Part shown: positions 26,439 through 59,442 of the stretch, piece by piece
Layout: each line of letters starts with the position of its first letter
Position numbering within the stretch: the stretch's first letter is position 1
From: Paraspadella gotoi
Lineage: Eukaryota > Animalia > Chaetognatha
Direction of reading: 5' to 3'
NCBI GenBank assembly: GCA_051294375.1
Contig: JBJCIZ010000448.1
Span: 1-59,442 of the forward strand
DNA length: 59,442 nt
The notes under the pieces: generated by a model
The model's database searches: none
What the model was told of the DNA's origin: nothing
Seen by the model: the letters and a program-made list of their open reading frames with translations, nothing else
Program-made: the position numbers and the translations under genes

Positions 26439-26604
26439 ACAAGTTTGTTTTGCGTGTCAAATAGTAGTAAGTAGGAAAAGGATATGGGAGAGAGAGTGTG
26501 GGGTTAGCGATTATAGTTTATCGAGAGAGAGAGAGAGAGGGATAAAAAACAAAAAAACATTTGAATAGTCCAACAGTCGGAATCGTCAAGAATTTTTGTC
26601 TTAC

Positions 26605-29576: not shown

Positions 29577-29647
29577 TTATATTTCCTTTTAATTTTGTAA
29601 CTTTTAACTTTTAACTTTTTAAAAGTTCGAGAGAGCGAGCGAGCGAC

Positions 29648-36771: not shown

Positions 36772-38765
36772 ATGCCGAGCGATTCGCGTTATATGCAGAA
36801 AAAAATGACATTTTCTATTTTGTATTATAGTTTTTTTTCTTTTGTAATTTTCGCCATGCTCTATCAAGGGGAAGAGAAAAGATTTAAATCCTTTATCGTC
36901 TATATAGAACGTTTAATTCGCCGTTGTCTCCAGAGAATCAACCCAGAAAACGAAAACGCTAAGAAATATAAAGACTTGAAAAGTGACTGTTCGCGAATAA
37001 TTGGATTTAAAATGGAGAGTCTGAGTCGACTGCAGAACGTCACGAACGAGAATTAGAGGAAAACGAACTTATTCTTTTCGTAAATATGTGACATTTTGTT
37101 CCTTTCACACAATCGCCGGAGATCTAGGTATAATCGATTAAATATATTTTTTTATTTTTTTTTTTTACCTTTTAAAATTTTTTCAGCTTTTACCTCAATT
37201 ACGGGATCACAACAAGAATCACACTGTAATCTTGGTATTGCTCGATTTGAATAGTCGGTTCTGTAGTCTTCTCGACTCAGAAAGGGCAAAGGCTTCGGGA
37301 CCCTAAAGAACTTTGAAAAGGCATTACGAACCGATTTATAGCTTCAAGACCCTAAGAAATCATTCAAGTATTCTAACGAATACAGCTGTACTCTGCAATT
37401 AATTTTTTTGGTTTGTTTTATGAAAGCAATTTCTATATTTACTGATAGTTGTCGATATTTATGTCTTAAGAGGGAATAAACCATATTTTTCTCTCAGTGA
37501 AGGCTATGAACTTGTTTAGGAGGATCTGCCTCCTTTAAATTAAAAATATAATAAAAAATTCAAAAAGAACAAATTAATAACACTGGTATCACCTTACCTC
37601 TATACTCATTCACAATCAATATCATCGTAAATAAGAAGCAAATCTCAGAAAGTATGAATATGACACATAATTAAAATGGAACTTAATTACCGTGGGAAAG
37701 TGCCATATTCCGTACGTACCATGTAGACCCTATATATTAGATTTATATTTTATGTGGCTTTCCAATTTAGAATAGTTATCTCTCGCAAAAGTCAATGCTA
37801 TATGATATTATTTCATTGTTACCAGGATACAGTTGGTCCCAAATTCAAGAGCAATCTTCAATTATTCGCATAGACCCACGATTTAATCAACAGCAGTAAT
37901 ACCTGACGTGTAATATGAATTATCAGCAATTTAACTTTAATTAGATGGAATGAGATGACTTTCTCAATTGTATTTAAAACACGCACAAACCACAGTTGCT
38001 TACATATGTATCGGGATCCTTGGTGCAGATGGCCTATACTCCTTTGGCCTTACAATCCGATTAAGAGATTTCTCTCGGTTCGGATTCACTCCCGTAGTAA
38101 ATTTCCTTAAATCTAATAAACTCTTAATTTATAGAAATTCGTAACAAATGATGCTCAGGAAAGCCGTTGTTTCCCTTTTAAACAAAAAAGCCGGGGAAAC
38201 TTGGGACAGTTTCGAGGACATTCAACGGAAGGCGAAAAATATTTTTTCCAAGATCCCTACTACTGAAATTTTAAAGGAAGGTGATCTCGTGCTCCTAATT
38301 CTTCCGGTTAAGAAATTTCGAAAGGAAGCTTCTGTTTTCTATCCTCGCTTTTCCAAAAAAATTTTCACTATCGAATCAGTCGACAGAACCTATTTCCCCA
38401 GAAGATATAAACTTAAAGAGTTTGACGATTCGAAAAGAAAGTTTTACGACTTTGAATTGAACAAAGTCCGTCCGATACAATCATCATCCGCGGATCGTCT
38501 GAGCACGACCGCCTCGGACGAGATATCCCCCAACCAGTCGGTATCGGTTAAGGACGTTGAAGTTCTGTCTGATCAATCCGTGTCGCTTAGATCCGGACGA
38601 GTTTTGCCAGGTCGCGAGAGGGTTATTTATACTGTACAGAGAGAAGGAAGGGAGGAGAGAGTCTTCCCTCAAGTGTTAAAGAAATATGTTAAGGTTTTAG
38701 GGAAAAACGTTTTGAAATATAGCGACGTTTTTAAAACCCCTGAAAAGCGAAAGTACATAATATAA
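36772..38765 (+). CDS. int: Retroviral-like (rve/DDE) Polinton integrase; centre (~37340-38050) degraded or poorly sequenced
   Basis: RTYSFRKYVTFCSFHTIAGDL|..LPQLRDHNKNHTVILVLLDLNSRF (first catalytic Asp; intron 37128-37186), YN..GFTP, and the typical C-terminal EGDLVLL..KKFRKE..PRFSKKIFTIESV..RRYKLKE..KFYDFELNKV. Confidence 0.88.
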
Positions 38766-38785: not shown

Positions 38786-40336
38786 ATGAGTCTTTTCACT
38801 CTTTATCTTTCAAATAAAAAAATTGAGGAAGAACACCAAGGGACAATGTCTACTACGAGTGACTTCTATATAGATTTAACACAGCAGATTGATCTTAACC
38901 AAACAATTCTACCTTTTAAAAGTCCTTTATCTGAAATGAGCATGAACACGTTTCAAATTACAGGGGTTCCTCTTTCTTTCACAAATGAAAATAAAATTTT
39001 TGTTTCTTTAATAATACCAACGGATATAACCAATGTCAATCAGAATTATGGGATTGAGGAAGTATCAACCAGTAACAATACTTATATGTGCATTACCCTG
39101 GACGATCTGACGATGGCGAGATCCAAAGAGGCTATAACATTTATTAACGAAATCTTGAATAATCATTTAAAAACCTACATAATTTTGAAATTCGCTTCTA
39201 TTATTTCGGATTTTAATCTAATTAATATAAACGCTCTGCAATTCAGCAAACATGACGCTAAACCAGTTCTTTCAAGCGACGATTATAAAATACTAAAGTG
39301 GTATCTTGATTGTAGTGTTTATTTCAGAAAAATAATGCACCAGTCGTTTAACACTTACCTACGTGAAGACCTCGAAGATGAGGTTGACTGGATCTACGAC
39401 ACCTCAATTTCGGCGAATGATGAAGCTAAACTGGTCAATAATAGTAAATATTTAACCCCGATGACTGATAGGAAACAGGTTATACAGAAACTGATCGATT
39501 GCAATAAACTACACGAGAGAGACTTATCGCAGCAACATAAAGATATAAAAGATGCCGCAACCGGGGAAATAGAAAGTTGGCTGCAAGATTTACAAGCTTT
39601 ACAAATCGACGAGGAATCGCAAAAACTTACCGAACAAAGTATTGATTCCTTGAAGAAGTTGAGAAAAGACAATATGCAAGTACTGAAGCTATCAACTATT
39701 ATTTTAAAAAATATTAAACCGGCAGCTCAAAGNNNNNNNNNNGAAATTGTGCAACTGGAACTTAATGAGAGGAAAAACAAATGTCGATTCACCTCTAAAT
39801 TTGATAAATTCATGCAAATCGAATATAAAATTGCACTGAGCATTCATTTTAACAATAAAACCTCGCAACTCCTTGGAGCGGAAAGAGGTAAAGATTTAGT
39901 ATTCACCGTNNNNNNNNNNNNNNNNNNNNNNAGCGGCTCTAAAGCGAAAAGGAAGAGAATAAAGGAAGAATATCACAGAATAGGGGTTGACGAACTACTA
40001 CCGTTCGAAGTGATCCCTTTTCCAAGAACCTTACACTTTTTATCTGACTTAACCATAAATCAATGCAGCTATGATGATTCTCGACTGAACGATACTAACT
40101 TTGCAAATCTGAATGTCTTTCACTCGCAGACTATCACGAACAACAATCTTCGTGAATTTTTCGTCTGTAAAAACGATAACGAACTTGCTTTTCACAGAGT
40201 AAAACAAGGGAAAACGATTTTTGGCGGATTCCGAATATTAATCTTGGATGAATATTTCAACCAAGTTTACTTTCCAAAAAAAACATTTATTTACTTTGGC
40301 ATTTCTTTTCGACCAGTATCGTTGAACGATATCTGA
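38786..40336 (+). CDS. Minor capsid protein (penton, single jelly-roll) with large internal insertion
   Basis: N-terminal FTLYLSN...TTSDFYIDLTQQIDL and C-terminal TLHFLSDL...LAFHRV...FRILILDEYFNQVYF...FGISFRP resemble Polinton penton strands; lies between integrase and MCP. Confidence 0.8.
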   Translation: MSLFTLYLSNKKIEEEHQGTMSTTSDFYIDLTQQIDLNQTILPFKSPLSEMSMNTFQITGVPLSFTNENKIFVSLIIPTDITNVNQNYGIEEVSTSNNTYMCITLDDLTMARSKEAITFINEILNNHLKTYIILKFASIISDFNLININALQFSKHDAKPVLSSDDYKILKWYLDCSVYFRKIMHQSFNTYLREDLEDEVDWIYDTSISANDEAKLVNNSKYLTPMTDRKQVIQKLIDCNKLHERDLSQQHKDIKDAATGEIESWLQDLQALQIDEESQKLTEQSIDSLKKLRKDNMQVLKLSTIILKNIKPAAQXXXXEIVQLELNERKNKCRFTSKFDKFMQIEYKIALSIHFNNKTSQLLGAERGKDLVFTXXXXXXXXSGSKAKRKRIKEEYHRIGVDELLPFEVIPFPRTLHFLSDLTINQCSYDDSRLNDTNFANLNVFHSQTITNNNLREFFVCKNDNELAFHRVKQGKTIFGGFRILILDEYFNQVYFPKKTFIYFGISFRPVSLNDI

Positions 40337-40372: not shown

Positions 40373-40687
40373 ATGAGCTGGTATAATTCAGCTCATCAAC
40401 AGAACTCTGGTTTTGACGCCAGCATCGCCAGACTCCTCATTCCTTACTTTGAGACGTCGACCGATCAACAAAGTAGCAACACACAGGAAATCAAGGGAAC
40501 CTCAAATCGACAGAAAACTATTACGGCGGATCAAAAACAACGCTCCCCTCCAGAGAGGAACAACGACGCCGGCCGCAAAGAAAAAAGAAAAAGAAAGGCG
40601 ACCATCGAAAAGACCGTAGAAACCGAAAAGGAATCGAATCGAGTCAAACAGAAAAAACAGCGAGTTAACTCTCGTAATTTCATTTGA
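40373..40687 (+). CDS. Small basic putative virion core/DNA-binding protein
   Basis: 104 aa: QQNSGFDASIARLLIPYF followed by a K/R-rich tail; sits between penton and MCP. Confidence 0.55.
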   Translation: MSWYNSAHQQNSGFDASIARLLIPYFETSTDQQSSNTQEIKGTSNRQKTITADQKQRSPPERNNDAGRKEKRKRKATIEKTVETEKESNRVKQKKQRVNSRNFI

Positions 40688-40722: not shown

Positions 40723-41803
40723 ATGGCGGAAGGGATACGATTCGGGGACGCGCCCCTTTCTCGGATCACGCCTGTGGTTACACCGCAAATTGATTCACTC
40801 TTGAATAACAAAGTTTACCTCGAAGACGGGTGTCTCTTTAACGGTATGAGATAAAAAATCCGTTATTCGAATGTTATCCACACATGTCATACTAAGTACT
40901 TAATTTTTTTTCCTCATTAGGTTATGTAAGAATAAACCCAGGTAAATAGATGTGAAATAAAAATCCTTATAGTCGTTTTTCTTCAGTTTTACACCTTTGT
41001 TAATTCTCTCACCCCCTTTACCAATAAGAGGACACGACCGAACTTTCAAAAGGTGAAAACATTTTCTATTTTAGGGTGAATTTTGTCTATCATTTCATCA
41101 CAACGTATTCTTTCAATTTTTAACTTTAGGAGGGCGAGCCATAAGTTTTAGATTCAACGAGAAAACGGCATTTTTGAATCCACATCGCTTTTTTCTGGAC
41201 ATCGAGATTGTCGCTACTAAAGAAGACGGAAGCGCGTTGACAACTTTTGACGTGTCGACTCTCCCTCTGATGGGTCAGGGGATCCTGGACAGCGTTTCTT
41301 TGAACATAGGATCTTCGCAATTGGTTAAGGTATTAATTGAAACGAATGATTTCTTTTTTCAATGATATTTAAAAATATAACGATTGTTTTAGTACGACAC
41401 GAATTACGGGATCATAGCTCGCCTGAACTACATAACTAAATACAGCCTTGCGGCTCGACAAACTTTTCTTCGAGAGTTCGAATATTATATCGAAGACCAG
41501 AACGACGTCGGCAGCACCGACGTTTCAACTTTCTTCGAATCGAAAACCATTGGCGGGGTCTCGAAAAAAGTACCCAAAGGCGAAAATGGCAAACGAACCG
41601 TTTTGCTGCTCGACAAAAATCCGATTAAATTTCGTTTGTCCTTCTTCTCTCCCCTCTCCACGATGAATTGCCTCTTACCCAACAACCTGGACATAACACT
41701 TCAGTTTTACCTAACTAGTCGTGAGTCTTTAAGTTTGTCAAAAAGACGAAAAAAAAAAAAAACAAAAAAGACATAGAACGATTCTTAATCTCGTCTCTCT
41801 CCG

Positions 41804-41834
<31 letters not shown>

Positions 41835-42768
41835 GGAGAGATACTTTATCACACAGACCGCCGGATTAAAACCGAAATTCTCTGTCAAATGTAATCTAAT
41901 TTTTATTTTTATTGGTAACTTATGACGATTAATCAATAATTCCTTATTACTTTTTAAGCTTGCTGTTTGTATGCCAACGTCATTCTACTGCGTCAGAACC
42001 TCCTGGAGAAAATCGAGAGTGCTTTGATCGCCCGCCCGATCCAAGTCAATTACAATGTGAGAAATACCTAATCATTAAAAATATATAATTATTTGATTTG
42101 ATACTTATTGGTTATTTTTAAGGCCACATTCGCCAAAGTTTACTCATTGGAAACAGGAATTACAAACAAATTTATTACCTTGACGTTAAAGAATAGCTTT
42201 TCCTTCGCCGTTGTCCTACTTCATAAAAACACGGTCCACAACGGTACGCTAGCGTCATCGATCCAAGTATTTGGAAGGGAAAAATTGGCACGTGCATTTC
42301 TCGAAGTAGGGATTAGTTCCAAGATCCCCTCCCTCCCCCTCGGAAATTCGGGTAAGAAAACAATTAAATAAACCGGTATGATCAAATAAAAGTATAATTT
42401 TTTACTCAGGCGACGTGGACGGTTACTCTTTCGTCAACGAGTGGGCGAGGAAAGCATCGTACCAACACGTCTGCGATACATTCAACTTTTTGACGGAAAA
42501 AGGAACTGAGGACTTCACTTTACAGGACTTTCTTAATACACGGTTTATGTTACCCTTCAAACTGTCTCCCTCCGTGAACAATATCAATCTAGACGACGCG
42601 CAGTCGCTACAGTCGACAATAAATCCAGGAAATCAATATCGTTTATACTTAGAGTTTGAGGAGCCTTTAACTCATGTTTTAAACGTAACGGTGGTTTTCA
42701 CGCAAGCTCGATCATTATTAATAAAATCTAACAGGTTGGTCTTCCAATCTGTTGACGTCGAGCAGTAA
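40723..42768 (+). CDS. Double-jelly-roll major capsid protein, 9 exons, 478 aa, intact
   Basis: Exons 40723-40843, 40921-40941, 41029-41052, 41130-41329, 41393-41720, 41834-41890, 41959-42056, 42123-42351, 42410-42768 total 1437 nt with no stops. Motifs AISFRF..FLNPHRFFLDIEIVATKEDGS, NYGIIARLNYITKYS, LLPNNLDITLQF, FMLPFKLSP, YRLYLEFEEPL match the Polinton MCP pattern. Confidence 0.93.
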
Positions 42769-42808: not shown

Positions 42809-43354
42809 ATGGATTTTACAGAAAATAATCTTGTCACTTCGGACAGTGACTTGAAAAAAATTTTGAAGAAAGACAAATTGAGTTATAATACTATTTTGAA
42901 AGGAAAACTTATTCTTTCTTACGACGAAATGCATAACANNNNNNNNNNTAGAATAAAAAAACATAAAATTGCTATAATAATAAATACTTTATCTACTAAA
43001 GAAGCAGAGTTCGATAAAATCGGTCATTGGTTAATATTATGCGTTTATCTTGTAAATAATGTTGCTGTAATTATTGATCCGTTGGAGAGGCTGGAAGAGG
43101 ATTTTCCGCACGTTAATAGAATAATAATCAATTTTTGTTCAAAAAATTTGTTTTCATTAAAAAGATTGCGCCTGAAATCGCAACATGATAAATCAAAAGC
43201 CTGCGGTTTGCAGATTTTATTCTATTTGAGAATGTTTTCTCATAATAATAATACAAATTATCTTTTTAAACTAAAAACGCTATTGCTAAAATATTCATTA
43301 GCAACAATCGAAAATTTTGTCATAAAATCTGTAATTAAAATGTTTCATTTGTGA
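42809..43354 (+). CDS. Adenain-like (clan CE) capsid maturation cysteine protease
   Basis: IIINT...IGHWLILCV...IIDPLE...SQHDKSKACG: His, Asp, Gln, Cys in adenovirus-protease order; directly after MCP. Confidence 0.9.
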   Translation: MDFTENNLVTSDSDLKKILKKDKLSYNTILKGKLILSYDEMHNXXXXRIKKHKIAIIINTLSTKEAEFDKIGHWLILCVYLVNNVAVIIDPLERLEEDFPHVNRIIINFCSKNLFSLKRLRLKSQHDKSKACGLQILFYLRMFSHNNNTNYLFKLKTLLLKYSLATIENFVIKSVIKMFHL

Positions 43355-43365
43355 TTTGATGCAGG

Positions 43366-43578
43366 ATGCCAGGCGTAGACTTGAACTTAACACCGTTCGT
43401 TAACAGAATTAAGACTTTTTTCTGGAAAGTACTAATCTCAATAGCCCTCATCAGCCTAGTAATTTCAAATTGGCTATCTCTTGAGTTTCCAAACCTCTTT
43501 CACAAGAATGTAAACGATTCCAACGACACCGACTCGAAGAGTGATAAGTGGAATTTAAAATTGTCTGTTTTGAACTGA
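43366..43578 (+). CDS. Small single-pass membrane protein (70 aa)
   Basis: Hydrophobic FFWKVLISIALISLVISNWLSL; acceptor GATGCAG|gATG upstream; AATAAA overlapping the stop. Confidence 0.5.
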   Translation: MPGVDLNLTPFVNRIKTFFWKVLISIALISLVISNWLSLEFPNLFHKNVNDSNDTDSKSDKWNLKLSVLN

Positions 43579-43812
43579 ATAAAAAAAACCAAGAACATGT
43601 TTACTTCGAAGAATATCGATCTGGCACCACTGCAACGGAACTTGCCGCAAACGGAAGCGACAAGGAGGCACCCGCCGTCGACGAAGAAGGAGACAGAAAA
43701 GAAAGAAGGTAAAACGGATGCTCTTTTTACTTTCCCGACCGAAACCAAACGGATCGGTTATTTTTTTTCACTTATATTACAAAGGGACGAGCGAAAAAAT
43801 AGTTTTTGCTAA

Positions 43813-43945
43813 GATTAGGGTGGGGTAGGGTTAGGGTTAAGGAGGTTAGGATTAGGAACAGTTAAGGTTAAGGACGGTTAAAGGTTAGGGATAGTTAGGA
43901 TTAGGGTTAGTTAGGATTAGGGGTAGTTAGGATTAGGAGTAGTTA
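43813..43945 (+). repeat. Degenerate telomere-like (TTAGG/TTAGGG) tract with G-quadruplex motif
   Basis: GATTAGGGTGGGGTAGGGTTAGGGTTAAGGAGGTTAGGATTAGG...GTTAGGATTAGG; four G3 runs at 43818-43836. Confidence 0.8.
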
Positions 43946-44281
43946 CTAGTTACCCTCGGTTTCAGGTTTTGATCAAAGTAGGTTATAGTAATATTCTATT
44001 CTTTTTATCGCAAAGATTTTTTTTTTTCCTTTTGCCCTTATAAGAAGCGGAAAAAAAAAACTGACCGGCGTACCCTAACCGGGTTAAAGTACAATACTTA
44101 CAAACATCACTAACAAAATAGGATATAACATAGGAACTAACACTTCTTTTTTTGCTTTCTTTAAGGGGGGTTCGTCGATAAGAAGGAGGGCGGTCTCGTC
44201 AGTCACTCAACGGAAAACTAGAAGGAAAAAAAGACGATAAAAAAATGAAAGGAACAATTCAAAAGCCGAATCGATTTTAGT

Positions 44282-46624
44282 ATGAGTCACACCGACCGTT
44301 ATGTATTATTAATATTTGTTACTACAATTCATGCCTTGGAATATTTAATATACACTCAAGTTTGAAATTCATTTTTTTCTACAAATCTATTTCTTATTTT
44401 TGACGATGATAATGATAAGAAGCCCACCCAAACGAGTTTTTAAAAATTAGCTTAATGACTTAATTATTTCGAAAAAAGATTTACTTTACCACATCTGTTC
44501 GCTTGTTGCAAAAATCCTTGAAAAGAAAAAAAAAAACTGGAGTGGAAACACAATGACACTTGAAAAATCATTAATAGAAAGAAAAAAATTAGATAACTTG
44601 AGTGAGAAAGGACAAATTAATTGCGGAGTTTTGGCTCATGAAGTTTTAAAATTTTATTCCGGTCCAGCTTCTTTAAACGAAAACGAATAGTAGTACAACC
44701 CGTAGTGGGAGTAAAATCACGTATTGAAAAGATAAGGGTTTTCTTTTTTTTTTAAAAAAAGGGGGGGGGAAAGCATAGCCATTGTTACATGAACACAAAT
44801 ACTAAAACAATAAAAAGACTCTCATCTTAAGCATTGAATTCAAAAAATGGAATTGTTTAAACAAAACTGCATTAAAGTCGCGAGAGTAAAGTGTCATTTT
44901 ACAATTATCAAAAGTTTTCAAATTGTAACTCAAGGACGTTAAAAACGATTGCTTTTTAAATCATTTGAACCCTTCTCCCTCGGACTCTAGTTTAAAATCA
45001 TCAGAAGTCGATTTTAACACTTCGAGAATCCTAAATACACACTCTCCGCTTAATGACCAGACAGAAATTTTTTTACTCGCGATGACCGCAAGATATTCTC
45101 CCCACCTTAAACTCTCCAGAACTAGTTCACCGCTCTTTTTCCAAAAACCTCTTCGTCGATGATACACAGAGATGTTTCTTCATCGATTTCATCACACACT
45201 CTCTCCACCCTTACCAGTCTCCAACAAGAATCGAATCAACATTCACGAAACTGTTCACCCCTCGTTTCTCTCCAACGACAACGAACGCGACGGAATTTAC
45301 CAACGATAGTACGACGGTTAAAGGACCGTTCCCCTTTCGTTTTTCTCCGACGAGGAAACCGCGATGAAAGGGCAATGGGACAGTCACCAGACCATCCAAG
45401 CCTCTTCGTTCCTCTCCGACCGTGGAAAGCACGACGAACAACGCAAATGTCGCAGCACGTGTGTCAGTTTGTTCCTGTTCATTCTGCTCTCCTCACTGAC
45501 CGTTGCAATAATTCCTCCAAAAAAATTCGTCGTCGATCGGTACGTTTGTTAATTCATTGCTTTTAAGACAAAATACAAACCACGTAACAGTTTTTTTTGT
45601 TTTTTTTCAGCTAAGCGAGAGAATCCTGGATTGGAGAAGACGACGTTTATGTAACGAGATCAGGAGACGACAAGAAATACAACTTCGACAAATTCCGTTC
45701 ACAGTCGAAAATCCGGCTTCTATTTCTCTTCCGAATCAAGATAATCCTGCAACTCCGAGCGAGGAAAACGCGAACTCAGTCACGTCGTTTTCTTCCCCGT
45801 CTCATGGTAATTTTTCCTCTCTCTCTCGCTAACTCGCTCGACTCAATCAGGTTCTTACTAAATCACTCACACACTTCTCAATCACTCTCGCTCAATCACT
45901 CCTCAATCACTCACTCACTCGATCACTCTCTGCTCGATCTCCCTTCACTCAATCACTAGCTCAATCACTCTCTCCTCTCTCTCTCTCTCTTTACTTTTAT
46001 ACAATAACCAAACTCAATAACTTAATGTGTTATTATTTTATTGTATACTATACCATTTTTGTTCAGCTCCTCCCGCTCTTCTCCAGAACTTAGCACGGTA
46101 TGAAAACGACTACGAGGAAATCTCAAATTTGGAGGTGGGACGGTTTCGTCGAATCGATAAGGCGAGAAATGACTTTAATTAATTAACGAATCACTTTTAT
46201 TAATTATTTGAAATATGTTACAGTTTGTCTCAAATGCACAAGAACCTGCTTGTACCAGAACAGGGAGACGAAAACTATTTAAACCTGTCAGGTGAAACAA
46301 ATCAAATTCATATTTCTTTTATTAAAACATCTCAAAAAGACTAAAACTTTCTTTGTTTATTTTCTGCTACAGTTTGTTCAAATGCACAAAACCCGCTGTG
46401 TTCAGAAACAGGGAACGAAAACTATTTAGAAACTGTCAGGTGAATGCAAATAAATTCATAACTTTTTTATTAAAAACATCTCAAAAAGACTAAAACTGTT
46501 TCTTATTTTATTTCTGCTAGCTCGGTTCACACGAAAACTCTGACGTTCAACTTCCATTGGCCTCCAAAGCGAAAACAAAACAAAAAATAAACTTTTCTTG
46601 GTTTTAAGCGGGAAGATGATTTAA
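44282..46624 (+). CDS. Putative type-I membrane glycoprotein: signal peptide, Cys-containing ectodomain, S/T-rich stalk, TM helix, Tyr/Pro-motif cytoplasmic tail (multi-exon, frameshifted)
   Basis: MSHTDRYVLLIFVTTIHA; S/T-rich stalk ~44965-45440; TM SLFLFILLSSLTVAII followed by a basic stretch; intron 45540-45610; tail exons encoding DEN(D/N)YEEI, EQGDENYLEPV, ENYLETV and VQLPLPPKRKK...KMI*. Consensus taken from both copies. Confidence 0.62.
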
Positions 46625-46879
46625 GCCAAAATAATCATGTCTTCCAATTTTTTTCTTTGTAATTTAAAAATCCTCGAAAAAAAAAAATTAGAATTACTTA
46701 CTACTTATTTCACAAAAATCCGTCTTAAACTTAGATTTGAATGCGTAATTCGACGCTGCGACTCTGTAACTAGCACCAAAAATCACTTCAACAAAAAACT
46801 ATAGCGCGACGGCAGCGCATTCAGTTCCCTATTTTTCTTTCGAAGTCTATAGAACTTTTCGTCCGAAAACTTAGAACCC

Positions 46880-49800
46880 GATTTAACTACTGTGCCAATT
46901 GAGACGATCTTCGTGCTTTCCTATGAAAAAACTTTTTGAAAGGCCTCCCTCTCTCTCGCTCTGAAGCAAACAACGAAAATTGTCTGCAATTGCGCCGTTT
47001 AAAATTGGCGGTCTTCCGTGGCTCTGCTCTTTTTTTCTCTCTCGGTTTTTTCTTGAGACTCTGCTCTTTGAGATCTCGCAGCGTCGCTGCTCGGAGGAGA
47101 CCCTCATTTTAAAACGCGCCAATTCAGACAAATTTCGTTTTTCCTCTAGAGAGAGAGAGAGAGTCAGAGTCGAACCTCTGAATGCCTGATTCGCAGCTCC
47201 AGCGACTCTGTCTCTTTTTCTCTCTCTGTTTTTTTGAGACTCTGTTCTCTTTCGAGGATCTCGAGCGTTCCTCGCTCGAAGAGAGCCTATTTAAATTGCG
47301 CCAAGTTCAGACCAAATTTCGTTTTTTCGCTCAGATGAGAGAGAGAGCAGAGTCGAGTCGAACCTTCGTAATGTTGCTGCTCCGCGCGAACTCTTCGTAT
47401 TTTTTCGACTTCTGGGAAACCAAAAATTTTGCGAGCGCGACTCGACAGAGTCCTCAAAGAGATCAGAGGAGAGAGCGACAGCAGTCTCGTCAAGAGACAG
47501 AGATGAGAGCTGAGGATCTATGTAAACAATGAAATTGGTAAATCTTTGTATATAATTAGTCCATCTTTGTAATTTTTTTTGTCTTTTGTCTAATTTATTT
47601 TACATTTTCTTTTAAAATGTGTACATACATATATTGCTACACGCGCTCATCTATACTTACTTGCATTGTCTACTGTTCTAAATTTCTCACATCTCTGTAC
47701 ATTAATAAATCATATCCAAACTCAAAAATCTCTCTCTCTCTCTCTCTCGTCTCCTGATGGACATAATCGCAAAATTGTGCTGAATCTGGCGGCACCATTT
47801 TAAATCGATCTCGTCCTATGCAGAAAAACTTTTTAAAGTACCTCTCTGCTCTCTTGCTCTGATGTGAACAAAATCGCAAAATGAACTCTGTCTTCTCTCT
47901 CCGTTTCTCTGAGACTCTGGTCTCTCAGAGATTCGAGTTGTTCTCTCGGCTCGGCGGCTAGGAGGGACGGAATTTTCAAAATAGTGTCCAATGCAGACAA
48001 TTCTCTGCTGCAGGATATTAACGAATTTTGTTCTGAATTGGCACATTTAAAATGGGGTCTCCTTCGAGCCGTCCTGGCCAGAGAGATGAAAAAAAAGACA
48101 GAGTCCAATCTCAAAGAGACAGAGCTCTCAAAAAAAACAGAGAGAGAAAAAGAGACGAGTCGCTGAGCTTCTAATCGTAGCATTCGCAGCTGTTCGACTC
48201 TGACTCTCTCTCTCTCACTGCAGGAAAAACGCAAAATTTGTCTTGAATTGGGCGCCGTTTTAAATACGGCACGCTCGAATCTCAAAGAGACTGAGTCTTC
48301 CAAAAAAGAGAGAGAAAAGAGACATGATCGCGGAGCTTCGAAGATCGCGCATTCTCGAGGCTTCGACTCTACTTTCTCTCTCTCTAAAAAACGAAAATTT
48401 GTCTGAATATCGCGCGTTTTTAAATCAGGGTCGTCCTCGAGCAGGAGCTCGAAAATCGGTGACGATGTTTCGAAGAGACAGAGGATGAGGAGAGAGTCTC
48501 AAAACAGCAGAGAGAAAAAGAGACAGACAGTCGCGGAGCTCGAATCTCTCTCTGTCTCTTATAAGACCTCTCTCGCGCTCACACAACTTTTTTTGTTTCC
48601 CGAAGTCGAAAAATCAGAGTCTCGAAGAGACACGAGAGAGACGAGAGAGACACGAAGTTCGAACCTCGAATGTTGGTCCGCCGGCAACAGGACGCTTCGG
48701 AATCCTCAAAGAGACAGTAGTCTCCAAAAAAACAAGATGAAGAAAAAGACGGATCAGAGTCGCTGGAACTCTTCATATTTTTTTGACTTACGGTTGAAAC
48801 TCAAAATTTTGTGAGCGCGAGGACAGAGTCTCAAAGAGACAGAGAAGAGAGCTCGAATCGAGACAGGTAGGTCTCGAAATCTCTCTCTTTTTTNNNNNNN
48901 NNNNNNNNNNNNNNNNNNTCCACCCTTACCAGTCTCCAACAAGAATCGAATCAACATTCATCGAACTGTCACCCCCCGTGCGCTAACGAACACGAACTCC
49001 GACGCAATAAACCATCGATAGTACGACTTGTTAAAGCGACCGTTCCCCTTTCGTTTTTCTCCGACGACGGAAACCGCGATGAAAGGCAATGGGACAGTCA
49101 CCAGACCATCCCGAGCCTCTTCGTCCTCTCCGACCCGTGGAAAGCACGACGACAACGCAATAGTCGCAGCCACTGTTCGATCAGTTTGTTCCTGTTCATT
49201 CTGCTCTCCTCACTGACCGTTGCAATAATTCCTTCAAAAACAATTCTCGTCGGATCGGTACGTTTGTTAATTCATCGCTTTAAGACAAAATACAAAACCA
49301 ATCGTACACATTTTTTTTTTTTGCAGCTAAGCGAGAGAATCCTGGATTGGAGAAGACGAACGTTATTGTAAATCGAGATCAGGAGACTGACCAAGAAATA
49401 CAAACTTCGACAAATTCCCGTTCAACGCTTCGATAAATCCGTTCTATTTTCTCCCGAATCAACTATACTCCTACAATCATCCGAGCGAGGAAAACACGAA
49501 CTCGTCACGTCGTTTATCTTCCCCGCTCATGTATTTTTCTCTCTCTCTCGCTAACTCGCTCACTCAATCAAGTTACTTACTACAATCACTCACACACTCT
49601 CAATCACTCTCACTCAATCACTCCCTCAATCACTCAACTCACCTCGATTCACTCTCGCTAGCGATCCCTCACTCAATCACTAGCTCAATCACTCTCTCTC
49701 TCTCGCTCTCTCTCTCTCTCTTTACTTTTATAAATAACCAAACTCGAAACTTAATGTGTTATTATTGTTATTACTATACCATTTTTTTTCAGCTCCTCCC

Positions 49801-52501
49801 CGCTCTTCTCCAGAACTTAGCACGGATGAAAACAACTACGAGGAAATCTCAAATTTGGAGTGGGACGGTTTCGTCGAATCGATAAGGCGAGAAATAGACT
49901 TTATAGTAACAAATTACTTTTATTAATATTTGAATATGTTACAGTTTGTCCAAATGCACAAGAACCTGCTGTACCAGAACAGGGAGACGAAAACTATTTA
50001 GAACCTGTCAGGTGAACAAATAAATTCATATTTCTTTTATTAAAACATCTCAAAAAGACTAAACTTTCTTTTTTATTTCTGCTACAGTTTGTCAAATGCA
50101 CAAGAACCCGCTGTGTCAGAACAGGGAACGAAAAACTATTTAGAAACTGTCAGGTGAATGAATAAATTCATACTTTTTTATTAAAAACATCCAAAAAGAC
50201 TAAACTGTTCTTATTTTATTTCTGCTAGCTCGTTCAACAAAAACTCTGACGTTCAACTTCCATTGCCTCCAAAGCGAAAGAAAACAAAAAATAAACTTTT
50301 CTTTGGTTTTAAGCAGAAGATGATTTAAGCCAAAATAATCATGTCTTCCAATTCTTTTTCTTTGTAATAAAAATCCCGAAAAAAAAATAGAATTACTTAC
50401 TTACTTATTTCACAAAAATCCGGTCTAACTTTAGATTTGAATGCGTTAATTCGACTGCTGGACTCTGTAACTAGCACACAAAAAATCACTTCAACAAAAA
50501 CTTAGCGCAGGAGCGATTCAGTTCCCTGATTTTTTTTTTCTTTTGAAGTTTAGAACTCTTCGTCGCGAAACCTTGGAAGGACCCGATTTTAAACGTTGCC
50601 AATTGAGACGATTTCGTCTTTCCTATGAGAAAAACTTTTTGAAGGCCTCTCTGCTCTCTCGCTCTGAGGAAAAACGAAAATGTCTGAATTGGCGCGCTTT
50701 AAAAATGGGGCTTTCCCTCCGAAGCCAGCTGAGTCGAGACAGACGGTCTCAGAGAAACGGAGAGAGAAAAAAAGCACAGAGTCAAGACCTCTCTCTCTGT
50801 TAAAAAAAGGAACGGGATCTATGTAAACACTGACTCTCCTATGAGAAAAAAAACTTTTTGCAGAAGACCTCTCTCTCTCTCCTCTCCTCTCTCTCTTTGC
50901 TCTGAGGAAAAAACGAAAAATTGTCTGGAAGTTGGCACGTTTAAAATTTTCGTCTCCTCCAGCCGAAGAACATTCGAATCTCTGAGAGACAGAGGTCTAA
51001 GAGAAACGGAGAGAGAAAAAAGAGGACAGAAGTTCAAGACCTCTCTCTCTCGTTCTGAGGAAAAACGAAAATTTTGTCTGAATTGCAAGTTTTAAAATTT
51101 CGTCTCCTCTGAGCCGCCTAGTCGAGACACTCGAATCTTGAGAGATCAGGAGTCTCAGAGAAACGAGAGAGAAAAAAAAGGACAGAGTCAAGGATCTCTC
51201 TCTCTCTGTCTCTTCGAAACTTCTGTCCCGATTTGAGCACTCCGCGACTCTGTCTCTTTTTCTCTCTCTGTTTTTTGTGGACTCTGTCTAAATTTCGTTT
51301 TTCCTCGGAGAGAGATAGAGTCAGAGTCGAACCTCGGAAATGTGCTCTGTCGGAACTCTGTCTTCTTTGAGATTGAGCGTCCTGCTCGGAGGAGACTTCA
51401 TTTAAAACGCGCCAATTTCAGACAAATTCGGTTTTTCCTCAGGCGAGAGAGAGAGAGTCAGAGTCCGAACCTCGGAATGTCCGATTTCGAGCTCCGGCGA
51501 CTCTGTCTATTTTCTCTCTTCTGTTTTTTTTTGAGACTCTGTCTCTTTGAGATTCGAGCGTGCCTATTTTAAAACGCCGCCAATTTCAGGACAAAAATGT
51601 TCGTTTTTTCCTTCAGAAGAGAGAGAGAGTCAGAGGTCGAACCTCGGAATGCCCGATTCGAGCTCCGCGACTCTGTCTCTTTTTCTCTCTCTGTTTTTTT
51701 TTTTAACTCTTCATATTTTGTACTTAGGGAAAACAAAATTTTGGAGCGGCGAGACAGAGTCTTCAAAGAGACAGAGGAGATCGAGCCCGAATCGGGACAG
51801 AGCTTCGCGACTCTCTGTTCTCTTTTTCTCTCTCTGGTTTTTTTTTTAACTCTTCATAGTTTTGACTTAGCGGAAACAAAATTTTGAGCGCGAAGACCAT
51901 AGTGATGACAGGGACGCTCCGATCTCAAAGAGACAGCAGTCTCAAAAAAAGAGAAAGAGAGAAAAAGAGACAGAGTCGCCGGAACTCTTCATATTTTTGA
52001 CTTAGGAAAAAAAATTTGTGAGTAGCGCGAGACAGGTCTAGGAGGAAACCGAACGAGTCAGAGTCTCAAGAGCAGAGAGAGAGAGAGCTCGGCGGCGAGG
52101 AGGAGATCCGGAATTTTAAACGTGCAATTCAGAACAATTCTCTACGTGAGGAAAACGAATTTGTCTGAATTGGCACATTTTGAAAATGGGGGTCTCGCTT
52201 CGAGCGCCGAGCCAGAGAGAGAAAAAAAGGAACAAGTCGAGCCAGATCAGAGTCCATATTTTTTACTCCGTGGCAACCCCAAAAAAATTTGGAGCGCGAG
52301 ACAGAGTCTCAAAGAGCACAGAGAGAGAGAGAGGAGAGATCAGGAGTCGGAGCTCGAATGTTAGTGCGCAGGTAGCTCTTCGTTGATTTTTGACTCCACA
52401 GCTCGGGAAAACGAAAATTTTGGTATGCCGTCAATTCATTTTAAGATTTCCCTCGAAAATCGCAAATTGTGTCTGAATTTGGCACTGTTTCCTATACTAC
52501 T
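46880..52501. repeat. Subterminal/TIR-like repeat array (~100-150 bp units in both orientations), interrupted by the duplicated block
   Basis: Recurring core AAACG(C/T)GCCAATTCAGACAAATTTCGTTTTTCCTCAGAGAGAG...GAGCTCCGCGACTCTGTCTC and its reverse complement; the last core lies ~15-40 nt from the ACTACT end. Confidence 0.75.
48919..50715 (+). repeat. Direct second copy of ~45203-47015 (3' part of the membrane-protein gene plus start of the terminal repeats)
   Basis: Same start TCCACCCTTACCAGTCTCCAACAAG, colinear to ...TTGGCGCGCTTTAAAA; begins right after N gap 48894-48918. Confidence 0.85.
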
Positions 52502-55500
52502 GTCGTTCTGCCGGTTATGTATTTAACGTTTTTATTACGTTTTTACTTTTAGAAAAAGTCGTTTTATCCGGTGTTTTTTAACTCTTTTTACATTGGAAAA
52601 AGTTTTGCCGTTTTGGTTTTTTAAAGTTTTTATTTCTTTTACATTGGAAAAAATCGTTTTTTTCTGTTATTTTTAAAGTTTTATATCTTTTTACAGAGAA
52701 AAAGTCGTTTTCTGGTGTATTTAACGTTTTTTATCTATTGATTAGTGAGAGAAAGCTACATAAAATTAAAGAGAAAAGAGAGAGAGAGGAGACATAAAAT
52801 AAAAGAGAGGAAATTTGTTTGTTTGATAAAAATATCTAATAACGTCCCTCACCAATTTTAACAACCTCGATGATGTTATTTGCAGAAGTATTTAACGTTT
52901 TTATTTCTTATTTCTTTTGAAAAAATCGTTTTCCGGTTGTTTTTAGAAATTTTTTATCTTCTTTTACATTGGAAAAAGCGTTTTTTTCTTTGTTTTTTAA
53001 AGTTGTTATCTCTTTGGAAATTATCTTTCTCCGCTGTATTTAACGGTTTTTTATCACTTTTTACTTTAGGAAAAGTCGTTTATCGGTGTTTTTTTTATAA
53101 TTTTTTACATGGAAAAAACGTTTGCCGTTTTTTTAAGTTTTTATTTCTTTCTTACATTTGAAAAAAATCGTTTTCTGTTATTTTTAAAGTTTTCATATCT
53201 TTTTTAGCGATGAAAAAGTCGTTTTCTTGGTGTTGTATTTAACGTTTATCTATTGATGAGTGAGAGAAAGCTACATAAATTAAAGAGAAAAGAGAGAGAG
53301 AAGGAGACATAAAAAATAAAAGATGAGGAAATTTTGTTTGTTTTTTGATTAAAGATATTTAATAACGTGCTCCTCACCCAATTTTTAACAACGCTCGATG
53401 ATGTTTATTTCAGAATATTTAACGTTTTTTTATTCTTTTTTTCTTTAAAAACCTATCGTTTGGTCCGGTATTTTAGAAATTTTTTTTTATCCTCTTTTTA
53501 CATTGGAAAAAAAAGCGGTTTTCTGTTGTTTTTTTAAAAGTTGTTATCTCTTTGGAAATATTTTCGTCTTTGCCCCTGTATTCTTAACAGTTTTTATCAC
53601 TTTTTACTTTTAGACACAGTCGCTTTATCGGTGTTTTTTAACTCTTTTTACATTGGAAAAAACGTTTGCCGTTTTTTTTTAAAGTTTTTTTTTATTCTTT
53701 TTACATTGGAAAACAATCGTTTCTGTTATTTTTAAAGTTGTTCATATCTCTTTTACAGAGGAAAAGTGTTTTTCTGGTGTATTTAACGTTTTTATCTTTT
53801 TGAGAGTGAGGAGAAAGCTACATAAATTAAAGAGAAAGAGAGAGAAGGAACATTAAAATAAAGAGAGGAAATTTGTTTGTTTTGATAAAAAGATGATTTA
53901 ATAACTGTCCTCACCCAATTTTAACAACCTCGATGATGTTATTTGCAGAAGTATTACGTTGTTTATTTCTTTTTTTTCTTTGAAAATATCGTTTTTCCGG
54001 TGTTTTAGAATTTTTATCTCTTCTTTACTATTGGAAAAGCGTTTTCTTTGTTTTTTAAAGTTTTATCTTCTTTGGGAAATGGTCGTCTGCCGGTTTGTAT
54101 TTAACGTTGTTTATTCTTTTTACTTTTAGAAAAAGGTCGTATCGCGGTGTTTTTTAACTCATTTTTACATTTGGGGAAAAAAACGTTTGCCGTGTTTTTT
54201 TTTTTAAAAGTTTTTTATATTGTCTTTTACGATGTGGAAACAATCTCCGTTTTCTGGTCTTGACCTCTTTTTAAAGTTTTTTTCATTATGCTTTTTACAG
54301 AGAAAAGTCGCTCTTTCTGGGCTGTATATTAACGTGGTTTGATCTATTGAGAGTGAGAGAAAGCTAACTTCATTAAAATTACAAGATGAAAAGAGAGAGA
54401 GAAGGAGACATATGAAATAAAACCGAGATTGTGAAATTCGTCTGTTTTTGGATTAAAAAGATATTTAAGAACTGTCCATTGCCACCTCAATTTTAACAAC
54501 CCTCGATGATGTTATTTGCATGGAAAGCTATTTAAACGTTAGTTTCTCTTTTTCTTTTGCACAAAATACCTCGTTCGCCGTATCGTCTTTCTAAAATTTA
54601 TCTCTCTCTGTTACATGGGAAAAAGCGTTTTTTCTTTGTTTTTAAAGTTGGTTATCCTTTTGGAAATATCCGTTTCTGCCGCTTCGCTGATCGCTGGTTA
54701 TTTTAAACGTTTTTATCATCACTTTTTACTTTTAGAAAAGTCGTATCGGTGTTGTCTTTTTATATTTTTACATTGAAAAAACGATTTGCCTTTTCTTTTT
54801 TAAGAGTTTTATTTCTTTTTACATTGAAAAAAAATCGATTTTCTTGTTATTTTTTAAAGTTTTTCATATCTTTTTACGCGAGAAAAAGTCGGTTTCTGGT
54901 TGTATGTTAACGTTTTTCACCTTCTGATTTGAGAGTGACGAGCCAGGCTCATACATAACATTAAAGAGAAAACGAGAGATAGAAGGAGACCAAAAAAAAT
55001 AGCAGAGGGAGAAATTGAGTCATCGCCTCCTTGATAATAAAGAGAACAGAGTGGAGATAACTGTCCTCGACCCAAATCTGTTAACAACCTCTCTAGAGAA
55101 TGTGTTCATTTGCAGAAACATCTAGTATTTAACGTTTTTATGTGCTTCTTTTTTCTTTTAAAAAATATCGCTTTTCCGGTATCTTTAGAAATTTTTCTTA
55201 TCTCTTTTTACATATGGGAGTAAAAGCGATTCTTCTTTGTTTTTTAAAAGTTGTTATATCTTCTTTTGGGAAATTCCGTCTGCCCCACTGTATTTAACGT
55301 TTTTATCCACGACTTTTCGTTTACCTTTGGAAAAGTCGTGCTATTTATCGGTGTTTTTAACTCTTTAATGGAAAAAAACGTTTGCCGTTTTTGTTTTTTA
55401 AAAGTTTTTAATTTTCTTTTACATTTTGGGAAAAAATCGTTTTCTGTTATTTTTTAAAGTTTTCATATTCTTTTACAGGAGAAAAGTTCGGTTTTCTGCC

Positions 55501-58500
55501 TGTACTTTAACGTTTTTATCTTTTTTGAGATGAGAGAAAGAAAGCTACATAAGAATTAAAGAGAAAGAGAGAGAGAAGAGAGACATTAAAACATAAGAGA
55601 GTGGAAAATTTTGTTGTTTTTGATAAAAGATTAATTTTAATAACTGTCCTCACCAATGTTTTAACAACCTCGAATTTGATGTTTATTTGCAGAAGTATTT
55701 AACGTTTTTTATTTCTTTTTTCTTTGCCAATATCGTTTCTGGACTGGTATTAGACATTTTCTCTTTACAACTTGGAATAAAACACCAGGCGTTTGTTTCT
55801 TTGTTCTCTAAAAGTGGTTATCTCTTTGGAAATATCGTCTGCGGGTATGTTGTTATTTATTATTTTTATTACTTTACTTTAGGAAAATCGTTTATCGGTG
55901 TTTTTTTAACTCTTTTTACATTGGAAAAAACGTTTGCCGTTTTTTTTTAAGTGTTTATTTCTTTTTACATTTGGAAAAATATTCGTTTTTTCTTGTTATT
56001 TTTTTTAAAGTTTCATATCTTTTTACAGAGAAAAAGTTCGTTTCTGTGTATTTAACGTGTTTATCTTTTGACGTAGTGAGGAGAAAGCTACATAAAAATT
56101 AAAGGAGAAAAGAGAGAGAGAAAGTAGACAATAAAAGATAAAAGAGAGGAAATTTGTTTGAACTGTTTTGATCAAAAAGATATTTAATAACTGTCCCTCA
56201 CCCAATTTAACAACCTCGATTATGTTATTGCAGAAGTTATTTAACGTTTTTATTTTTCTTTTTTCTTTTGTGAAAATATCGTTTTCCGGTGTCTTTAGAA
56301 GATTTTTCTATCTGCTTTTTTACATTGGAAAAAGCGTGTTTTCTTTGTTTTTTAAAGTTGTTATCTTCTTTTGGAAATGTCGTCTGCCGGGTGTATATTA
56401 ACGTTTTTATTTTACTTTTTACTTTAGCGAAAAAGTCGTTCTACTCGGTGTTTTTTAACTCTTTTACATTGGAGAAAACGTTGCGTTTTTTTTTTTAAAG
56501 TTTTTATTTTCTGTTTTACGCATTGGAAAAAATCGGTTTCTGTTATTTTTTAAAGTTTTCATTATCTTTTACAGAGAAAAAAGTTCGGTTTTCTGGTGTA
56601 TTTAACGTTTTTATCTATTGAGAGTGAGAGAAAGCTACATGAAAATTAAAATGAGAAAGAGAAGAGAAGGAAACAAAAAATAAAGAGAGGTAAATTTGTT
56701 TTGTTTTTTGATAAAAAGATATTTAATAACTGTCCTCACCCAATCTTTAACAACCTCCGATGATGTTGATTTGCAGAAAGTTATTTAACGTTTTTGTAAT
56801 TCTTTTTCTTTGGAAAATATCGTTTTTCGGTGTTTGAGAAATTTTTTATCTCCTTCTTTACATATTGGAAAAAGCGTTTTTCCTTTGTTTTAAGTTGTTA
56901 CTTCTTGTGGAAATATCGTTCTGCCGCTCGTATTTAACGGTTTTTATCACTTTTTACTTTAGAAAAGTCGTTTATCGGTGTTTTTTTTTAATATTTTTCT
57001 TACATTCGGAAAAAACGTGTTGCCGTTTCGCTTTTTTACAGCTTGTTTATTTTCTTTTTACATTGAAAAAAAATCGTTTTTCTGTTATTTTTAAAGTTTT
57101 CATTCTTTTTTAGCGAGAAAAAGTCGTTTTTTCTGCGCTGTATTTAACGTTTTTTATCTATTGAGAGTACGAGAAAGCTACATAAAAATTAAAGAGAAAG
57201 AGAGAGAGAAGGAGACATAAAAAAAAAGAGAGAAATTGTTTGTTTTGATAAAAAGATATTTAATAACTGTCCTCACCACATTTTAACAACCTCGATTGAT
57301 TGTTATTTGCAGAAGTAGTAAACAGTTTTTATTTCTTTTTTCTTTTAAAAATATCGTTTTTCCGGTTATTTTAGGAAATTTTTTATCTCTTTTTAGCTTG
57401 CGAAAAAAGCGTTTTCTTTGGTTGTTTAAAGTTGTTATCTCTTTGGAAATATCGTCTGCCCCTGTATTAACGTTGTTTTATCACTTTTTACTTTAGAAAA
57501 GTCGTTTTTATCCGGTGTTTTTTTAAAACTCTTTTTACATTGGAAAAAACGCTTTCCGTTTTTTTTTAAGTTTTTATTTTCTTTTTACATTTTGGAAAAA
57601 AATCGTTTTCTGTTATTTTTAAAGTTTTCATATCTTTTTACAGAGAAAAAGTCGTTTTCTGCTGTATTTAACGTTTTTTATCTTGTGAGAGTGAGAGAAA
57701 GTACATAAAATTAAAGAGAAAAGAGAGAGAGAAGGGAGACATTAAAAATAAAAGAGAGGAAATTTGTTTGTTTTGATAAAAAAGATATTTACATAACTGT
57801 CCTCACCCAATTTCTACAACCGTCGATTGATGTTATTTTGCAGAAGTATTTTAACCGTTTTTATTTCCTTTTGTCTTTGAAAATATCGTTTTCCCGGTGT
57901 TTTTAGAAAATTTTTTATCTCTTTTTACATTGGAATATAAGCGTTTTTCTTTGTTTTAAAGTTGTGTATCTCTTTTGGATCATATCGCTTGCTCGGGTTG
58001 TATTTTATTAATTTTTCTTACTTTTTCTTTAAGAAAAGTCGGTGTATCGGTGTTTTTTAACTTCTTTTTACATTGGAAAAAACGTTTGCGTTTTTTTTTT
58101 AAAGGTTTTTATTTCTTTTTACCAGTTGGAAAAAATCGTTTTCTGTTTATTTTTAAAGTTTTCATATCTTTTTACGAGAGAAAAAGTCCGTTTTTCTGGT
58201 GTTATTTAACGTTTGTATCTATTGAGAGTGAGAGAAAGCCTACATAAAAATTAAAGAGAAAAGAGAGAGAAAAGCGAGACATAAAAATAAAAGAAAGGGG
58301 AAATTTGTTTCTGTTTTGATAAAAGATATTTGATAACTGTCCGGTTTTCGACGCCAAATTTTAACAACCTCGGATGATGTTATTTGCAGAATGTATTAAC
58401 CGTTTTTTTATTTCTTTTTTCTTGTGCAAAATAGTCGTTCCGGTGTTTTAGAAATTTACTCTTTTTACATTGGAAAAGCGTTTTCTTTGTTTTTTAAAGT

Positions 58501-59442
58501 TGTTATCGTATTGTGGAAATGATCGGTTCTGCCGCGTGTAGTTTAACGTTTTAATCACTTGTTTACGTTAATAAAGTCGTTTATCGGTGTTTTTTTATAT
58601 TTTTGTTACATTGCGAAAAACGTTTGCCGTTTTTTTTAAAAGTTTTTATTTTCTTTTTACATTTGAAAAAATGCGTTTTCTGTTATTTTATAGTTTTTTC
58701 ATATCTGTTTTTACAGAAGAAGAAAGTCGTTGTGTCTGGTGTATTTTAACGGTTCTTTATCTTTTTGAAGAGTGAGAGAAAGCTTACATTAAAATTAAAG
58801 AGGAAAAGAGAGAGAGAAGGAGACATAAAATAAAAGAGAGGAAATTTGTGTGTTTTGATAAAAAGATATTTTATTAACTGGTGCCTCACCCAATTTGTAA
58901 ACAACCTCGATGATGTTTATTTTGCAAAGTATTTTAACGTTGTTATTTCTTTTTTCTTGTTGAAAATATCGTTTTCCGGTTTGTTTAGAAATTTTTATTC
59001 TCTGTTTGACATTGGAAAAAGCCCGTTTTTCTTTGGTTTTTAAAGTTGTTTATCTTCTTTGGAAATGTCGTCCTTCTGCCGGGTATTTAACGTTTTTATT
59101 ATTTTTACTTTAGAAAAGTCGTTGTATCGGGTTTTTTTAACTCTTTGTACATTGGAAAAAACGTTTGCCGTTTTTTTTTTAAAGTTTTTATTTCTTTTTA
59201 CATTGGAAAAAACGTGTTTCTGTTATTTTAAAGTTTTCATATCTTTTCTACAGAGAAAAAGTCGTTTTCTGGTGTATTTAACCGTTTTTTATTATTGAGA
59301 GTGAGAGAAAAGCTACATAAAAATTAAAGAGAAAAGAGAGAGAGAAGAGACATAAAAATAAAAGAGAAGGAAATTGTGTTTTTTTGATAAAAAGCATATT
59401 TAATAAAACTGTCCTCCACCCAATTTTAACAACCTCCGATGA
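52502..59442. repeat. Host AT-rich tandem satellite, ~13 units of ~515-550 bp, each with ~7 diverged ~45-50 bp subrepeats plus a purine-rich segment
   Basis: Anchor GAGAAAGCTACATAAAATTAAAGAG recurs at ~52748, 53263, 53811, 54356, 55540, 56081, 56628, 57171, 57695, 58232, 58776, 59304. Subrepeat TTTTTACATTGGAAAAA.CGTTT...TTTAA. Confidence 0.95.

Follow-up and report, generated by a model that had tools for sequence, protein, structure and literature searches.

A predicted type-I membrane protein with candidate SH2- and SH3-docking motifs, probably encoded by an intron-rich Maverick/Polinton-type element of Paraspadella gotoi

The neighbourhood of the membrane gene described here is a Maverick/Polinton-type element rich in introns, and the gene, found in a 59,442-nt window (the whole stretch of Paraspadella gotoi DNA that was analysed), is very probably a member of that element and likely an accessory gene directly behind its capsid block. 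Its product is predicted to be an accessory, non-catalytic type-I membrane glycoprotein with a tail that would dock host tyrosine kinases and SH2/SH3 adaptors, a reading to which we give an even chance; that it hijacks tyrosine-kinase signalling is plausible from its motifs. Because no homologue was found in any search, the reading of function is built on anatomy. The analysis shows position, gene packing, TM helix, stalk, exon duplication, motif letters and one RNA splice that connects an exon on the protease side with the ATG-bearing exon; the scaffold role and all steps after transcription are inferred. Coordinates are given in Table 1.

Table 1. Features of the element and of the membrane gene in the window
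Feature	Positions	Strand	Basis
pPolB	15834-20315	-	three collinear matches to P0001; DTDS exon; CT..AC RNA joint in run X9
Packaging-ATPase-like exon	31017-31580	+	Walker-B-like IIVFDD
Integrase C-terminus-like ORF	38145-38765	+	sequence and position; DFSRF piece upstream
ORF in 521-codon open frame, minor-capsid position	38786-40336	+	identity from gene order only
Small basic ORF, PW position	40373-40687	+	sequence, gene order
Major capsid protein (MCP) gene, several predicted exons	40723-42768	+	exon 41393-41719 matches double-jelly-roll clusters
Adenain-like cysteine protease	42809-43354	+	His-Asp-Gln-Cys pattern by eye, expected position
70-aa ORF, one hydrophobic helix, AATAAA at stop	43366-43578	+	region identical to short-read contigs
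Upstream exon	43597-43708	+	X9 contig stops at donor 43709
457-nt GT..AG intron with TTAGG-like repeat	43709-44165	+	one X9 joint
Start codon and predicted signal peptide	44282-44335	+	by eye
Predicted Cys-containing ectodomain	44336-45214	+	frame-broken; no homologue found in searches
S/T/P-rich stalk, 3 N-glycosylation sequons	45215-45456	+	sequence
TM helix	45457-45513	+	19-mer Kyte-Doolittle 2.47; same helix in copy 2 (49174), 2.48
Predicted intron 1	45540-45610	+	GT..AG sites
Tail exon 2, Arg-rich, then P/S/N-rich, without Tyr	45611-45806	+	65 codons open in copy 1
Predicted intron	45807-46066	+	precedes tail exon 3
Tail exon 3	46067-46134	+	YEEI at 46111-46122; both copies read it in the frame of the acceptor
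Tail exon 4, repeat 1	46224-46291	+	DENYL..; YLEP in copy 2
Tail exon 5, repeat 2	46373-46439	+	NYLETV in both copies
Last exon and stop	46521-46590	+	PPKRK (PLPPKR in copy 2); sequence
Second noisy copy, 3' half of membrane gene	48919-50708	+	88% identity; begins directly after N gap

The membrane gene and its tail

The type-I layout of the original prediction held: a hydrophobic N-terminus (by eye), an S/T/P-rich stalk, a TM helix, an Arg-rich stretch directly after the helix and a spliced tail. The ATG begins MSHTDRYVLLIFVTTIHA, a short hydrophobic stretch ending I-H-A with a best 9-mer Kyte-Doolittle value of 2.93, and lies about 1.2 kb ahead of the TM helix, over an ectodomain with one possible hidden intron near 44886-44990. 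The stalk is 48% and 38% S/T/P in its two open pieces. The five internal GT..AG introns measure 71, 260, 89, 81 and 81 nt and the short tail exons 66-68 nt. Exons 4 and 5 are, together with their downstream introns, a tandem duplicate, and the stop (46588-46590) overlaps an AATAAA at 46586. Exon 3 resembles exon 5 weakly (shuffle p 0.01-0.06 in all four pairs) and shows no resemblance to exon 4 (0.12-0.39, again in all four). Exons 3-5, and hence the three tyrosines, may descend from one multiplied unit, and they are therefore not treated as three independent motifs.

Where might such a protein come from? None of 40 candidates was homologous to exon 2, a Pfam search with 14 pieces of the gene gave one match (E 0.22), an ESM Atlas search with the ectodomain gave no usable match, and a 22-nt pattern had no match in metagenome and viral contigs. 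The sole match of the ectodomain piece 44451-44687 among 1.84 billion proteins, which we take to be a kinetochore-like repeat protein (P0002), was rejected, its score being a sum over 11 repeats. The gene, for which none of these searches produced a homologue, may be a mimic or a captured host receptor.

The tail can be read from two noisy copies, copy 1 at 44282-46590 and copy 2 at 48919-50708, and the motif set first quoted as one locus turned out to merge them. Copy 1 reads YENDYEEI, DENYLNLS, NENYLETV and WPPKRKQ; DENNYEEI, DENYLEPV and LPLPPKRKK are found in copy 2 only, which also gives TKNYLETV. Of the quoted DEN(D/N)YEEI and ENYLETV, the YEEI and NYLETV parts thus survive in both copies, as does the exon duplication, whereas ENYLEPV and the full terminal LPLPPKRKK do not extend beyond copy 2. 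In copy 1 each of the three tail tyrosines has the form N-(x)-Y, preceded by one or two acidic residues among the four positions ahead of it. Of the traits of viral phosphotyrosine membrane scaffolds, the predicted protein shows a membrane anchor (Kyte-Doolittle 2.47 and 2.48 in the two copies), three acid-flanked tyrosines and a tail without a Pfam domain.

How much of this could arise by chance? YEEI occurs twice in all six frames of the 59 kb, once per copy and each time in the acceptor-set frame, compared with a Markov expectation of 0.3 per 32.7 kb in six frames and 0.0007 per 155-codon tail, a figure that overstates the rarity because YEEI had been singled out from the sequence beforehand. 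PxxPxR belongs to the class II SH3 ligands; the pattern PxxPx[RK] matches 41 times across the window, with 0.04 expected in the tail, and is weak by itself, and the words YxxP and PxxPxR are present in one of the two noisy copies only. Docking of Grb2, whose SH2 consensus is YxN, is rejected, because no YxN is common to both copies and the YxN reading is confined to exon 4 of copy 1. YLEP would be a YxxP site of Crk/Abl type. The ligand role of pYEEI is documented: it binds the SH2 domains of Src, Fyn and Lck, that of Src at about 0.5 uM, and hamster polyomavirus middle T bears it as pY324EEI (PMC3858276, from the portion of its text available). Phosphorylated YxxP binds the SH2 domains of CrkL and Abl on non-catalytic scaffolding receptors that are phosphorylated by Fyn and Abl (PMC6029619, likewise in part).

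An element-borne protein of this layout might alternatively use its tail for sorting, with YEEI as a YxxPhi endocytosis signal, which it fits, and with an ectodomain that shields the cell surface or pulls a host protein inward. Ectodomain and stalk do make up most of the protein, and an ectodomain-based role has parallels in the adenovirus E3 membrane glycoproteins and in Glc1.8, a surface mucin that is not known to have a comparable signalling tail. This gene of Microplitis demolitor bracovirus, an arthropod DNA virus, alters immune cells by blocking haemocyte adhesion and phagocytosis (PMC13539141, in the text available). We nevertheless consider sorting unlikely as the role of the tail, since at +3 the duplicated YLEP/YLET sites carry P or T, which YxxPhi does not accommodate, and a terminal PxxPxR is present in copy 2. 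Acidic residues preceding tyrosine also favour kinases over the AP-2 mu subunit.

The element and the place of the gene within it

The element is identified as Maverick/Polinton because pPolB, a double-jelly-roll MCP and the known gene order of the capsid module occur together. Frames of the pPolB region contain PPIEDFY, DTDS and KDE-type motifs and match P0001 (1226 aa) with E values of 2.3e-4 in a database search and of 2e-7 and 3e-9 pairwise; P0001, in which Endonuclease_7 is the sole Pfam domain, we take from its motifs to be a protein-primed polymerase. The MCP exon 41393-41719 has a cosine of 0.96 to double-jelly-roll clusters in the ESM Atlas (PF21738 on 10-15% of members), with Sputnik MCP and Capsid_N at 0.93 and a low recognition score of 1466; its Pfam scan gave no match. 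Gene order is that of the vertebrate module int-minor capsid-PW-MCP-protease, which an accessory region flanks (PMC8097293, available in part).

The remaining core assignments are weaker. The IIVFDD of the packaging-ATPase-like exon we assume to be a Walker-B-like motif, with no Walker A nearby and no profile-library match. The ORF after the DFSRF piece, like that piece, is presumed by motif to be integrase-like; it has no library match and no resolved DDE triad. The 521-codon ORF had no match among 7994 candidates and an unusable predicted fold (pLDDT 34). The His-Asp-Gln-Cys pattern presumably marks an adenain-like protease, with no match in PDB, Pfam, NCBIfam or PHROGs and a model pLDDT of 42; single-sequence folds of this ORF and of a 317-aa piece were unusable. 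Sequence-database searches returned no related loci for the core genes, and L001, a contig of bacterial origin, was rejected because its match of 30 residues is due to chance.

The core genes are spliced. At 13960-16030 on the minus strand, run X9, not recorded as RNA and judged to be RNA by its CT..AC joints only, has at least five such joints of 67-79 nt among the 15 joints listed of 21. Four of them lie in one gene on the left and the fifth within pPolB, directly behind the DTDS motif; the MCP gene is split into pieces by short introns. Since pPolB is itself spliced, introns are no marker of host cargo in this element, and they were dropped as a sign of host origin. The element is not placed with canonical vertebrate or nematode Mavericks, in which the published core genes are intronless.

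Does the membrane gene belong to this element? From the integrase-like ORF to the membrane gene, eight same-strand ORFs follow each other with spacers of 20, 36, 35, 40, 11, 18 and 60 nt. In all four runs examined (X1, X2, X6 and X9, from three studies) overlapping contigs tile the stretch from the protease to the gene, no single piece among the contigs listed spanning it entirely. One of five X9 joints at the gene region is GT..AG and excises exactly 43709-44165: the contigs stop at the donor and restart near the acceptor, and the downstream contig crosses the ATG to 44587. This joint has a depth of only 4, with 26 letters on its short side; it also closes a small upstream ORF, to which it may belong, and is better proof of adjacency than of expression. 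None of the five internal introns was seen spliced, X9 contigs crossing them unspliced at depth 8-12; X9 leaves 44854-45533 uncovered, a gap that is no proof of anything. A misjoin, which the original prediction had named as its own refutation, is unlikely because contigs of three studies tile the junction between gene and core genes, which one RNA contig also bridges by a splice. Contig depths at gene, protease and pPolB, a weak indication that does not give copy number, lie in one range within each DNA run: 973, 877 and 937-1388 in X1, 17-48, 33 and 49.5 in X2, and 25-34, 36 and 42 in X6; co-amplification of element and gene in X1 was rejected, the spacer 12018-13367 being equally deep.

Two tiny ORFs (43366-44221) separate the protease from the membrane gene: the 70-aa ORF, with a single membrane helix, and a two-exon ORF of about 55 aa, which may be an upstream ORF in the mRNA of the membrane gene. 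Exon 43597-43708 may be the first exon of the latter and/or a leader of the membrane gene.

We hold it to be improbable that this is instead a host gene, coding for a receptor or adaptor with motifs for ordinary host signalling, that lies next to a truncated element or was recently picked up as a passenger. Invertebrate host receptors often bear acid-flanked tyrosine motifs, and five introns with an exon duplication look host-like. Nematode Mavericks carry host-derived, intron-bearing cargo (10.1101/2022.07.12.499685, in the text available). The original prediction placed the gene inside an element boundary; position, packing and tiling contigs agree, but neither a TIR nor a target-site duplication was found and no boundary emerged from the TIR searches, in which 46600-52600 compared with 1-44000 gave a CT microsatellite as the sole match, both sides being gapped or duplicated in the assembly. 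Two loose ends also lead from the protease region into other DNA downstream, one at 43369 in X9, where the protease copy shows 57 differences over about 396 letters, and one at 43533 in X6 on related sequence. Against a host locus, spacers of 11-60 nt leave it scant space, the polymerase is spliced too, neither Pfam nor a set of 1.84 billion proteins yielded a host family, and the overlap of stop and AATAAA recurs in the adjacent 70-aa ORF. Membership of the membrane gene in the element is the reading retained below.

Several other structures were seen in the window. Relatives of the protease (43036-43350) and the polymerase (16661-16833), about 83-86% alike, are found in X6 and X9, which shows that the organism harbours a small element family; in some members the protease is followed by other DNA. 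The polymerase arm forms a 10-kb inverted repeat (1036-11420 and 13849-23658) around a spacer at about 11870-13380, for which one contig has roughly half the arm depth in X2 (25.5 versus 49.5) and X6 (27.7 versus 41.8), although not in X1; instead of being a fold-back read, the repeat may thus be a genuine head-to-head duplication. At 23649-26456 on the minus strand lies an open frame of 935 codons that has zinc-finger-like Cys/His patterns, a charged tail and no Pfam match, and a very GC-rich CCG tract (29378-29580) separates the leftward from the rightward gene block. An array of CT/AG-rich units of about 150-185 bp in both orientations occupies 46900-52450, is absent elsewhere in the window and could be a subterminal region of the element or a host satellite. 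An AT-rich tandem array fills 52500-59442 with units of about 540 bp made of subunits of about 53 bp.

Assembly quality and the two copies

The scaffold is gappy (19 N runs in the window) and a mosaic of accurate parts and raw long-read fill. The interval 42950-43587 has no difference from the short-read contigs of X1, X2 and X6, and the membrane gene differs from such contigs by many indels (19 substitutions and 40 gaps to one 1408-nt contig), which is why its frame breaks are likely mostly read errors. The breaks of copy 1 affect the ectodomain, the stalk, the stretch from stalk to TM helix, and the TM/exon-2 and exon-3/exon-4 junctions. One copy or both keep each tail junction in phase, apart from exon 3/exon 4, where the exit of copy 2 and the entry of copy 1 are the sole matching combination. 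Aligned over 1769 columns, the two copies show 43 substitutions and 123 gap events; copy 2 is likely an assembly overlap, two noisy reads of one locus, and possibly a genuine second gene copy. It is very improbable that the gene has decayed or goes unexpressed in the form described, its motif set being a mere merger of two error-rich copies: both copies have frame breaks, internal splicing went unseen and two of the four quoted motifs stand in one copy only, yet the excess of gaps over substitutions is typical of long-read error, both copies share the TM helix, YEEI, NYLETV, PPKRK and every one of the ten internal splice sites, and copy 1 stays open from exon 4 through its splice sites to the stop.

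Comparison with known systems and meaning

Among viral proteins the closest parallel in design is vaccinia A36, a membrane protein in which two tyrosine sites recruit adaptors and the actin machinery (PMC9333988, here and below from the text available). Like A36, the Paraspadella protein, judged from sequence alone, would be a membrane protein with a tyrosine-bearing tail and no catalytic domain; the tail of A36 is disordered, its tyrosines are phosphorylated by Src/Abl kinases and it recruits SH2 adaptors (PMC9333988). The sites differ: A36 has Nck (IYDSV) and Grb2 sites (PMC9333988), the Paraspadella protein YEEI, YLEP/YLET and a terminal PxxPxR. It departs from A36 further by its large ectodomain, by the introns of its gene and by the absence of a Grb2-type site common to the two copies, and no sequence link was found. 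Middle T proteins are tail-anchored, have a J domain and bind PP2A, whereas the Paraspadella protein is type I with a predicted signal peptide and a stalk. With hamster polyomavirus middle T it shares an identical four-residue Src-family SH2 ligand on a membrane-bound protein (PMC3858276), four residues being no proof of descent; Merkel cell polyomavirus middle T (PMC10740393) is a further viral comparison in the class. By analogy the protein likely works like A36 or middle T while being a member of neither family, a membership that we deny because there is no sequence link and the topology is different.

Cellular scaffolds offer a second comparison. DCBLD1/2 are likewise non-catalytic membrane proteins with several tyrosine motifs of the Src/Abl/SH2-adaptor type (PMC6029619, in part); unlike them, the Paraspadella protein is element-borne, has three tail tyrosines only, and no CUB, LCCL or discoidin domain was found in it. 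LAT, PAG, SIT and LIME, in the sources available, are also non-catalytic membrane proteins with several tyrosine motifs, but their ectodomains are very short (16 extracellular residues in PAG), and that of the Paraspadella protein is far longer than those of PAG and LIME.

The element shares with vertebrate Mavericks pPolB, the MCP, the ORF order of the capsid module and an accessory region beyond the protease, and with those of the cane toad gene modules that point apart (PMC8097293, in the text available). Vertebrate Mavericks have intronless core genes, a length of 12.7-24.6 kb and TIRs (PMC8097293), unlike the Paraspadella element with its extent of at least 30 kb, its spliced pPolB and no TIR found in the window. 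Nematode Mavericks also encode a type-I membrane protein, the fusogen MFUS-1, and intron-bearing cargo (wasp, krma), and none of their genes is described with a phosphotyrosine tail in the available text of 10.1101/2022.07.12.499685. As the original prediction held, no Maverick protein with SH2/SH3-docking motifs was met in the mainly open-access literature searched, nor in the available portions of 10.1101/2023.08.22.554363 and 10.1101/2024.03.25.586562.

How would such a scaffold act? A spliced mRNA would yield a surface protein bearing a glycosylated stalk, and the SH3 domain of a Src- or Abl-family kinase would dock on the terminal PxxPxR. The docked kinase would then phosphorylate the three acid-flanked tyrosines; pYEEI would hold the kinase SH2 domain and keep the kinase active, and in parallel the duplicated YLEP/YLET sites would recruit adaptors of the Crk/Nck/Abl type. 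Actin, adhesion or phagocytosis might in consequence be altered in the element-active cell, as with vaccinia A36, or kinases and adaptors might be diverted from host immune receptors. A bolder version, in which a transcribed, fully spliced invertebrate Maverick virus uses an A36/middle-T-like surface scaffold, tuned by exon duplication, to activate Src/Abl-Crk and so disables phagocytes or aids cell-to-cell spread, is offered tentatively, as less likely than not.

The novelty would lie in the place, a Maverick, and not in the chemistry, the strategy being known from poxviruses and polyomaviruses, and short phosphopeptides with host SH2/SH3 domains provide a cheap handle on it. Spliced core genes such as those found here would escape intron-blind surveys (PMC10120064, in part). 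Mavericks encode capsids, and according to the available text of PMC8097293 their particles have never been observed. A membrane protein that engages tyrosine kinases would be awkward for a silent transposon and would suit a virus that faces immune cells or exits a cell; if the reading as an infectious Maverick is true, the gene would benefit none but an infectious virus and would in that way be indirect evidence for a virion phase.
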